Assembly: GCA_964482995.1 (NCBI GenBank)
Contig: CAYZZC010000003.1
Location: 1 to 61,227, forward strand
From: an uncultured Candidatus Saccharibacteria bacterium
GTDB taxonomy: Bacteria > Patescibacteriota > Minisyncoccia > Phycocordibacterales > SBAW01
DNA: 61,227 nt
Direction: 5' to 3'
In this document: one piece after another, positions 6,657 through 6,962 of the stretch
Numbering within the stretch: position 1 is the stretch's first letter
How the letters are laid out: each line of letters opens with the position of its first letter
Translations under genes and position numbers: made by a program
Notes under the pieces: model-generated
Seen by the model: the letters and a program-made list of their open reading frames with translations, nothing else
Databases searched by the model: none
Told to the model about the DNA's origin: nothing

Positions 6657-6962
6657 GTCTCACCAATAAGTGCGGGGCAGCAATCGGATCGCCCAAAAGA
6701 GCACCGGTCTATACGCCCCGCCCGTGCTTGCGCACGGTATTTAGAAGAACTTTCGGCGGACATTCTAAGAATCGCTCGAGAGAGTAATCGCTCTATTGTC
6801 CGCCGTCCACACGCCGAAGCGTGCGAAATAGGGTGAGGGATCAGACAGAGATACGTTTCTAGAAAAAGTAGAAATATGTTCCTTCACGACCCCTCTTTCC
6901 AACATCCAAGGATCAGATACTAGAAAGAGGGGCGAAGCACTTTCATGCTTCGCCGGTGAGAC
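6657..6962 (-). ncRNA. Structured RNA module, copy B (complete unit)
   Basis: Bounded by the closing stem GUCUCACC (plus 6955..6962) and GGUGAGAC (plus 6657..6664). Seven conserved helices with GNRA and UUCG loops when read on the minus strand. Confidence 0.65.

Follow-up and report, generated by a model that had tools for sequence, protein, structure and literature searches.

A very probable stem-loop TIGR-Tas locus, with a TasR predicted to be inactive, between tsaD and valS of an uncultured Candidatus Saccharibacteria bacterium

TIGR-Tas systems were published in 2025 (Faure et al., Science 2025, PMC12045711), and a clade from the Patescibacteria (candidate phyla radiation, CPR), in which stem-loop guide arrays accompany a TasR protein with a dead RuvC site, was added in a 2026 preprint (Xu et al., bioRxiv 2026, 10.64898/2026.09.09.750476). 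According to these papers, each stem-loop unit carries two spacers of 8–12 nt, a box C (CCA, CGA, CUA, or CAA), a box D (UG or CG), 14-nt intervals, and variable palindromic flanks. The arrays lie both upstream and downstream of tas, CUU motifs are involved in their processing, and at other loci they are transcribed and processed to single stem-loop RNAs that co-purify with Tas. The dead PateTasR and CsTasR, as well as the TasA protein MbTasA, are RNA-guided transcriptional repressors that bind DNA without cleaving it (Faure et al. 2025, Xu et al. 2026). We analysed a stretch of 61,227 nucleotides from an uncultured Candidatus Saccharibacteria bacterium (GenBank assembly GCA_964482995.1, contig CAYZZC010000003.1). 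This entire 61-kb stretch is called the window, all coordinates are in its numbering unless stated otherwise, and its locus was compared with 80 related loci (L001–L080). Positions 4731–7166 very probably constitute a TIGR-Tas locus of the CPR stem-loop type, a clear but ordinary further example of the system first described in 2025. Its anatomy, its strand, its covariation, the family membership of its protein, and the loss of catalytic residues are established.

The locus lies in the 2.5-kb gap between tsaD (3650–4732, plus strand) and valS (7273–9444, plus strand). The gap holds a single long open reading frame (ORF), on the minus strand at 5153–6466, here called tasR, and the conserved motifs, present three times, were restricted to this gap when the window was searched. 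In minus-strand order, an upstream array (T1–T7) is followed by tasR (6466–5153), a downstream array (T8–T12), and a terminator-like hairpin. The 12 dual-spacer guide units (tigRNA units), at 4758–7148, flank the ORF and are interleaved with guide-less hairpins. All 12 lie on the ORF strand and within 700 nt of the ORF, and none is found elsewhere in the 61 kb. Each unit is built of a stem of about 7–11 bp, a box C (CGA or CAA, sometimes CGU), a 9-nt spacer A, a box D (UG), a 4-bp hairpin, a second box C, a 9-nt spacer B, a second box D, and the other side of the stem.

The likeness to the CPR stem-loop systems extends to the dual 9-nt spacers, the CGA/CAA boxes C and the UG box D, the variable palindromic outer stem, the small hairpin between the spacers, the placement of units on both sides of tas and in tas sense, the CUU at stem bases, and the Patescibacteria host. 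On the protein side, CPR dead TasR proteins (CsTasR and the Buchananbacteria locus) share with the ORF product a Nop-type domain, a coiled coil, a RuvC-like domain that has R8 at the first site and a hydrophobic residue at the second, and a beta3–beta4 insertion, although CsTasR has 547 aa and the present protein 437 aa. The array differs in that many boxes C are CGU or CGG or boxes D are UA, in that two units are decayed, and in a duplicated block of about 340 nt whose position-specific units alternate with conserved guide-less hairpins, an organisation of which the consulted sections of the two papers hold no description that we could find. The dual-repeat system of the Thermoproteota protein TaTasR, whose TIGR-TasR complex is PDB entry 9MTY (Faure et al. 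2025), is the best PDB match in both sequence and fold and also has tandem spacers, box C/D anchoring, and a dimeric effector. By contrast, TaTasR has an active RuvC site (D11) and cuts DNA, its 36-nt guides derive from edge and loop repeats rather than from stem-loops, and the stem-loop clades reportedly lack its CTD5 Tyr/His processing loop.

Two more distant systems bear comparison. Archaeal and eukaryotic box C/D small RNA–Nop5 ribonucleoproteins also combine two guide segments bounded by boxes C and D with a Nop-domain dimer and an inactive RuvC-like N-terminal domain, but k-turn C/D boxes (RUGAUGA/CUGA), L7Ae or fibrillarin partners, and spacer matches to the tRNAs of the window are lacking here, and the published Tas relatives bind DNA. 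CRISPR likewise places a guide array beside an effector and joins hypervariable guides to a conserved scaffold, whereas TIGR arrays lack identical direct repeats, a single unit contains a pair of short spacers directed at opposite DNA strands, and no adaptation genes are known.

The assignment of the repeats rests on a motif scan and a covariance model. A strict scan for two C[GCUA]A-N9-UG intervals enclosed by a flanking stem recovered six units in the window, all of them on the minus strand. In the 80 related loci it returned 392 units in ORF sense against 22 antisense, when shuffled sequences lead one to expect about 21 per strand, and the units lay on both sides of the gene, at most 1.5 kb away. 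The seed of the covariance model R2 comprised 45 units from other genomes and excluded those of the window and of L001. Applied to the window, R2 detected 10 units, which all lie between 4758 and 7146 on the minus strand, with plus-strand scores at these units of about half the minus-strand scores (18.3 against 36.1 bits for T3), and gave no convincing match over the remaining 58 kb. Across L001–L040 it found 264 units in ORF sense and none antisense. Two further units, T4 and T9, were recognised by position and bring the total to 12. The canonical pattern is plain in L002–L004, where stem, GACGA, N9, UG, small hairpin, CGA, N9, UG, and stem follow each other in many repeats on both sides of the gene. 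The outer stems of units in the window measure 8–11 bp. In the R2 seed alignment the stem sequences vary and 98% of cells pair, a circular figure as the set was chosen for its stems; independent support for palindromic unit stems comes from the R2 matches in the window and in the 40 loci.

The composition of the stems points to the same strand. When both pair types were detected symmetrically in unit stems, 140 G-U pairs were counted against 61 A-C pairs, and GNRA and UNCG tetraloops numbered 47 in ORF sense against 11 antisense equivalents. In a general hairpin census the G-U/A-C ratio fell from 1.7 in array flanks through 1.45 in coding sequence to 1.2 in far flanks; chance hairpins dominate it, and as it was too noisy, the unit stems were used for this comparison. 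A CUU occurs within 10 nt past the 3' arm in 37% of units across loci, compared with a background of 16.5%. In the window, GUUCUUCU follows T5 and T10, and ACUUAUU follows T2, T6, and T11. Relative to shuffles, a 564-nt stretch folds to −256 kcal/mol on the minus strand (z = −11.3) and to −213 kcal/mol on the plus strand (z = −9.6). A preliminary description of this DNA had proposed that the minus strand, which is also the ORF-sense strand, yields a functional RNA, and the biases in scanned units, R2 units, pair types, and tetraloops all bear this out. The three positions to which it drew attention, 4869, 6940, and 6809, indeed form U-G pairs when read on the minus strand, where the plus strand has C-A.

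The same description had made a stretch of 306 nt (6657–6962) the folding unit, closed by a stem between GTCTCACC at 6657–6664 and GGTGAGAC at 6955–6962. Both strands are present, and the hairpins and helices quoted with them exist at coordinates right to within 1–2 nt: hairpin i at 6931–6954, 6589–6612, and 5075–5100, stem ii at 6890–6931, 5033–5076, and 6548–6590, and hairpin iii at 6722–6737, 4866–4881, and 7063–7079. GNRA and UUCG loops do occur on the minus strand, except that the 26-nt hairpin at 5075–5100 (GGCGGAGTGCG-CAAG-CGCACTCCGCC) has a CUUG loop and is thus not of the GNRA type, and the plus-strand CGAA lies at 6815–6818 rather than at 6814–6817. An autonomous structured RNA of about 306 nt, ribozyme-like or a large non-coding RNA domain, held by the long-range helix GUCUCACC/GGUGAGAC and present in tandem copies, with pairing across the linker as a regulatory alternative, would agree with the complementarity of the strands, with the minimum free energy structure of the 564-nt stretch, which nests one module in the long-range helix, and with the conservation of element order in the block across genomes. 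Yet the two strands are the 3' arm of T3 (6955–6962) and the 5' arm of T7 (6657–6664), and the supposed linker contains CGA-N9-UG, a small hairpin, and CAA-N9-UG. Its box C-N9-box D intervals are canonical, R2 scores it as a tigRNA unit, and each closing-stem arm pairs locally across it. The centroid fold pairs the closing strands locally, the first 5' arm (6999–7006) and the last 3' arm (4758–4765) have local partners only, and the L001 equivalents possess local stems of their own with compensated changes (GGUGAAAC/GUUUCAUC and GAUGAGAC/GUCUCAUC). No Rfam family matches either: at a permissive E-value, only chance-level matches were obtained in the array (4500–7500 searched), and at the gathering score the matches in the whole window were tRNAs and one SAM riboswitch, with none in the array. 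Published RNA-seq of related arrays shows processing to single stem-loops. The 306-nt domain is therefore very unlikely to be right.

Of the two mutually exclusive folds that had been put forward, pairing across the linker stands, as the strict scan, R2, and the centroid fold all recover it, and module closure as the main fold falls; the fold listed as the alternative is the canonical one. In RNA order, 6657–6962 comprises the 3' arm of T3, hairpin i, stem ii, T4, the UUCG hairpin, T5, the CUU linker, hairpin iii, T6, and the 5' arm of T7. Since the closing strands belong to two units of one type, the 342-nt period is that of a duplicated block of guide units and linker hairpins and not that of a folding domain. 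The folding unit is hence corrected from a 300-nt domain to the local dual-spacer stem-loop. The guide-RNA nature of the repeat and its protein partner had gone unrecognised, and a striking repeat without an Rfam family can now be assigned to a defined RNA-guided system.

The protein partner is the 437-aa product of tasR (5153–6466, minus strand), to which Pfam, profile, and model assign an inactive RuvC-like domain and a Nop-type RNA-binding domain. Its Pfam matches are weak, with PF02371 (Transposase_20) and, below the cut-off, PF01548 (DEDD_Tnp_IS110). It has more than 580 homologues; those with a named organism are nearly all from Patescibacteria, and many are labelled 'transposase' in databases. 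A profile of 26 homologues searched against the PDB matched TasR (9MTY) with E = 1.8e-19 and the recombinase IS621 with E = 0.024. The AlphaFold2 model (pLDDT 89) has 9MTY as its top Foldseek match (E = 2e-11), followed by IS621 and TasH (about 1e-6), and ISCro4 is also a structural neighbour. The model also has long helices at 185–223 and 247–269, in keeping with a Nop-type domain with a coiled coil. The position of the first catalytic Asp is occupied by Arg8, invariant in 26 of 26 sequences, and position 121, at the end of strand 117–122 in the model, is Val, Ile, or Ala across the family (Val121 here). The model also places an insertion of about 75 residues (40–116) in the RuvC-like domain between beta3 (33–39) and beta4 (117–122), with a helix at 42–50 and strands at 53–59, 75–79, 92–95, and 98–110. 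In CsTasR the first two catalytic positions are R8 and V126, and the beta3–beta4 insertion, of about 80 residues, is composed of a short helix and a curved sheet (Xu et al. 2026); the correspondence of R8 and Val121 with CsTasR is drawn from residue numbering and the published text, not from an alignment. Finally, the protein of L063, which is 43% identical, lies on the Buchananbacteria contig rifcsphigho2_02_scaffold_15087, which is cited as an example locus for TasR with an inactivated RuvC (Faure et al. 2025). Taken together, the 9MTY match, the dead catalytic positions, the beta3–beta4 insertion, and the L063 contig lead us to conclude, on the grounds of sequence and predicted structure, that the ORF product belongs to the CPR dead-RuvC clade of TasR and is not an IS110 recombinase.

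An insertion sequence of the IS110/IS1111 type, whose flanking non-coding RNA would serve as a bridge or seek RNA for RNA-guided recombination, is the reading to which the two Pfam matches, the structural neighbours IS621 and ISCro4, and the frequent naming of homologues as 'transposase' might lead. IS621 (8WT6) and the IS1111 seekRNA systems do combine RuvC-like domains and Tnp or Nop-type RNA-binding domains with a gene-adjacent non-coding RNA whose internal loops guide to both DNA strands. However, their catalytic residues are not kept here: the first Asp of the DEDD set is the invariant Arg8, the second position is hydrophobic, and in our own reading of the alignment the IS621 ESGSS, which is the catalytic Ser stretch, faces K/L-D-G-R-F, with Asp or Gly in the family. 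The profile prefers TasR over IS621 10^17-fold, and the RNA consists of many one-loop, dual-spacer units instead of one two-loop bridge RNA with a target loop and a donor loop. Neither element ends nor signs of mobility are apparent. The window holds a single copy, and no spacer matches the element flanks. The valS/tsaD site is shared with L001, the genome whose protein is 83% identical, which suggests vertical inheritance, though L002 has other neighbours. The catalytic residues, the RNA architecture, and the synteny lead us to reject the bridge-RNA reading, to which hardly any credence can be given. The idea that these are DNA-level repeats (REP- or MITE-like palindromes or recombination sites) with incidental hairpins and no RNA function is next to negligible since, although palindromic DNA of any kind would, like both strands here, fold far more stably than shuffles, this idea does not predict the strand biases in units (392 against 22 and 264 against 0), in G-U against A-C pairs (140 against 61), and in GNRA and UNCG tetraloops (47 against 11), nor repeats strictly tied to tasR, oriented like it, and absent from the rest of the window.

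If the TIGR-Tas assignment is correct, the homologues PateTasR and CsTasR and, by analogy, the TasA protein MbTasA suggest how the locus may work. The precursor would be cut near CUU at the stem bases to release single stem-loop guides, and a TasR dimer would bind each tigRNA through its box C/D motifs. Spacer A would then pair with one strand, and spacer B with the opposite strand, of an 18-bp DNA target. With its RuvC site dead (Arg8, Val121), the complex would be expected to bind the DNA uncut and to repress transcription.

Several observations weigh against this assignment. Expression, processing, and binding at this particular locus are extrapolated from published relatives, and a consensus scan of the locus found no sigma-70-type promoter. 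A search of the window, array excluded, for DNA sites matching the 12 spacer pairs in all four A/B arrangements with up to 4 mismatches yielded no target, the 2 sites with 3 mismatches and the 14 with 4 being close to the 1.7 and 12.5 obtained with shuffled spacers, and no spacer complement matched any of the 10 tRNA genes of the window with at most 1 mismatch. An RNA-type target search with single spacer 9-mers likewise returned 7 exact matches against about 10.7 expected. The boxes are in part non-canonical, with CGU as box C in T1, T4, T6, and T9, CGG in T2, and UA as box D in T4 and T5. T4 and T9 were missed by R2, T9 has no 3' arm, and part of the array may be decaying, as these two units and the odd boxes would indicate. 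No description of the guide-less hairpins (i, ii, iii, UUCG, and H0) was found in the consulted sections of the two TIGR papers. As for the boxes, CGU is also present as box C in a b-type unit of L001, and the CGU, CGG, and UA forms may be either a variant tolerated in this lineage or early decay.

The individual units, all on the minus strand, are as follows. The upstream array opens with the d-type unit T1 (7093–7148), which has the stem GGGGGGUGA/UCACCUCCC, a CGU box C, and the spacers AUACGCGUU and AACUAGAAA (R2 at 7095–7146, 21.9 bits, E = 0.009). T2 (7014–7062), of e-type, has the stem GCGGGG/CCCCGC and the spacers CAGUGCGAC and AUGGGACAU, and was recovered by R2 (7013–7063, E = 0.018) and by a relaxed motif scan. 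T3 (6955–7006), with the stem GGUGAGAC/GUCUCACC, reads CGA-GAAAAUUUU-UG and CAA-AGAUAUGGU-UG and satisfies both the strict scan and R2 (E = 6e-6 for the score given above). The degenerate b-type unit T4 (6837–6893), with a CGU box C, UA as its first box D, a long inner hairpin, and the spacers GAAGGAACA and AUCUCUGUC, was identified by its position and by comparison by eye with canonical b-type units of L002 and L003. T5 (6755–6804), of c-type, combines the stem GGCGGA/UCCGCC with CAA-UAGAGCGAU-UA and CGA-UUCUUAGAA-UG (R2 at 6754–6805, 26.4 bits, E = 9e-4), and is followed by the linker GAAAGUUCUUCUAAAU (6739–6754), whose CUU at the stem base corresponds to the published processing motif (Xu et al. 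2026). T6 (6672–6721) is an e-type unit with the spacers AUAGACCGG and UCCGAUUGC (R2 at 6671–6722, 28.6 bits, E = 3e-4). T7 (6613–6664) repeats the stem GGUGAGAC/GUCUCACC around the spacers GAAUGAUCU and AAGAAUGUU, and was detected by the strict scan and by R2 (34.7 bits, E = 1e-5).

The downstream array begins with T8 (5101–5150; spacers UGUCAUUUU and GAUGUGAGG), found by the strict scan and by R2 (35.9 bits, E = 6.5e-6). T8 begins 2 nt past the tasR stop codon (5101–5155), so that one transcript would carry the mRNA and the guide without a break, and the 3' end of the tasR mRNA would be set by T8 processing. T9 (4979–5036) is a decayed b-type unit that has lost its 3' arm and is placed by position only. 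The c-type unit T10 (4899–4948; spacers UUGAUCAAU and CUCUUGGUC), followed by a CUU linker at 4883–4898, scores best in the window (38.1 bits, E = 2e-6) and was also found by the strict scan, as were T11 (4817–4865), an e-type unit with the spacers AAGUGCAAC and UUGGAACAU and an R2 score of 31.3 bits, and the last unit T12 (4758–4809), with the stem GGUGAGAC/GUUUCGCC including two G-U pairs, the spacers UUUUCCAUC and GGAGGGCUA, and 31.0 bits.

Comparison with L001 bears on the turnover of the spacers. Besides the 83% identical TasR, L001 has the whole locus at the same valS/tsaD site (window 4733–7272, L001 3048–5312). Over four orthologous units, the scaffold is 70% identical between the two and the spacers 33%, in effect randomised, and a conserved scaffold with divergent spacers is the pattern expected of guide segments. 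L001 does not have the extra full block B, and its downstream block retains a d-type unit (stem GGUGGUGAC) lost from blocks A and B of the window. Within the window, T2 and T11 (7014–7062 and 4817–4865) are recent paralogues, with spacers identical at 7 of 9 and 7 of 9 positions. The block copies are mosaic, with identities of 91%, 90%, and 87% over different segments (7014–7062 against 4817–4865, 4858–4981 against 6714–6837, and 6585–6679 against 6927–7021, respectively). Judging from these sequences, this suggests block duplication with gene conversion, the spacers drifting by point mutation. The locus thus provides a clean chromosomal example of TIGR in a Patescibacteria genome, with an orthologous array at the same site in a relative, and its orthologous and paralogous unit pairs offer material for studying the turnover and the targets of TIGR spacers.

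Between the units, on the same strand, stand the guide-less hairpins. H0 (CUGCC-GAAA-GGCAG, 7153–7166) forms the 5' end of the upstream array, and L001 has it too, ahead of the d-type unit. Hairpin iii has copies C (7063–7080, abutting the next unit), B (6722–6738, with a GCAA loop), and A (4866–4882, with a GAAA loop and the U-G pair at 4869). It abuts an e-type unit in the window, L001, L003, and L004 alike, with stem sequences that differ. The C(UUCG)G hairpin has copies B (6808–6825) and A (4952–4969). All of these were recognised in the sequence. Hairpin i and stem ii are also backed by the covariance model R1: copy B consists of hairpin i with a GAAA loop (6931–6954) and of stem ii (6891–6931), whose 5' arm is pyrimidine and whose 3' arm is purine, both elements being supported by covariation (R1 at 6890–6954, 76.8 bits), copy D lies upstream of the tasR start (6548–6612, 58.6 bits), and copy A, with the CUUG loop, at 5033–5100 (78 bits).

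R1 was seeded with a subset of 9 sequences, taken when a MAFFT alignment of 14 copies of hairpin i and stem ii proved structurally poor. It gave 62 matches in 81 sources, 46 of them in ORF sense in 31 of the 80 related loci. In the R1 alignment, 95.6% of cells are paired, compared with 68% after shuffling and 48–56% with slid partners, and double-sided changes occur at 25 of 25 pairs. The covariation score is 0.594, against 0.20 shuffled and 0.10–0.14 slid, the alignment being fitted to the structure of the model. The preliminary description had staked its compensatory changes on a larger alignment showing more of them than chance, a test set beforehand, and compensation in the R1 alignment is far above chance, which upholds its view that compensatory change maintains the helices. 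R1 elements sit directly between two tigRNA units, as seen in L003 (R2 at 3237–3293, R1 at 3294–3359, and R2 at 3354–3405, in the coordinates of that locus) and in L004 (R2 at 3261–3313, R1 at 3314–3386, and R2 at 3395–3452). A regular-expression search for this adjacency recovered only 17 and 14 of 46, as it misses many units, and the arrangement is clearer from model coordinates. R1 elements also tend to bracket tasR, at 112–223 nt before the ATG and 58–157 nt past the end of the gene.

The two arms of stem ii have a marked composition, pyrimidine in the 5' arm (CCCUCUUUC or CCUCCUUCC) and purine in the 3' arm (GAAAGAGGG or GAAAGGAGGG), both in the window (6891–6931 and its paralogues) and in L002 (3360–3395 of that locus). 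We take them to resemble an anti-Shine-Dalgarno and a Shine-Dalgarno sequence, respectively. As the ribosome-binding site of tasR, stem ii was discarded, being too distant from the start codon. Hairpin i and stem ii could together be a processing or assembly signal. The guide-less elements could also be the 'flanking context' that sharpens processing according to Xu et al. (2026), and they are candidate determinants of stem-loop array processing. More tentatively, and with the balance of probability rather against it, the array as a whole may represent a conserved super-module of about 340–420 nt, in which five position-specific units with their own conserved stem identities alternate with guide-less hairpins acting as dedicated processing, assembly, or regulatory signals, and which grows by duplication of whole blocks followed by spacer gene conversion and point mutation. 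If true, spacers would be renewed without any adaptation machinery.

Some features at the margins of the array can be added. The 5' leader of tasR in L002–L004 contains one extra canonical unit and a small hairpin. In the window (6467–6547) and in L001 this extra leader unit is deleted, and what is left ahead of the ribosome-binding site is CUGAUC-uuuuua-GAUC, a TTGACA hexamer, and the hairpin GUCUGC-uuu-GCAGAC. At the other end, directly after T12, a GC-rich hairpin followed by a U-rich tail (4731–4756, minus strand) is terminator-like on the minus strand and overlaps the last 2 bases of the convergent tsaD. It coincides with the 3' end of tsaD on the plus strand and with the end of the array on the minus strand, and may be a bidirectional terminator for both. 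Far from the locus, the SAM riboswitch (RF00162) lies at 32938–33036 on the plus strand, with 46.8 bits and barely over its gathering score, and is directly followed by a 20-nt tandem repeat at 33056–33096.

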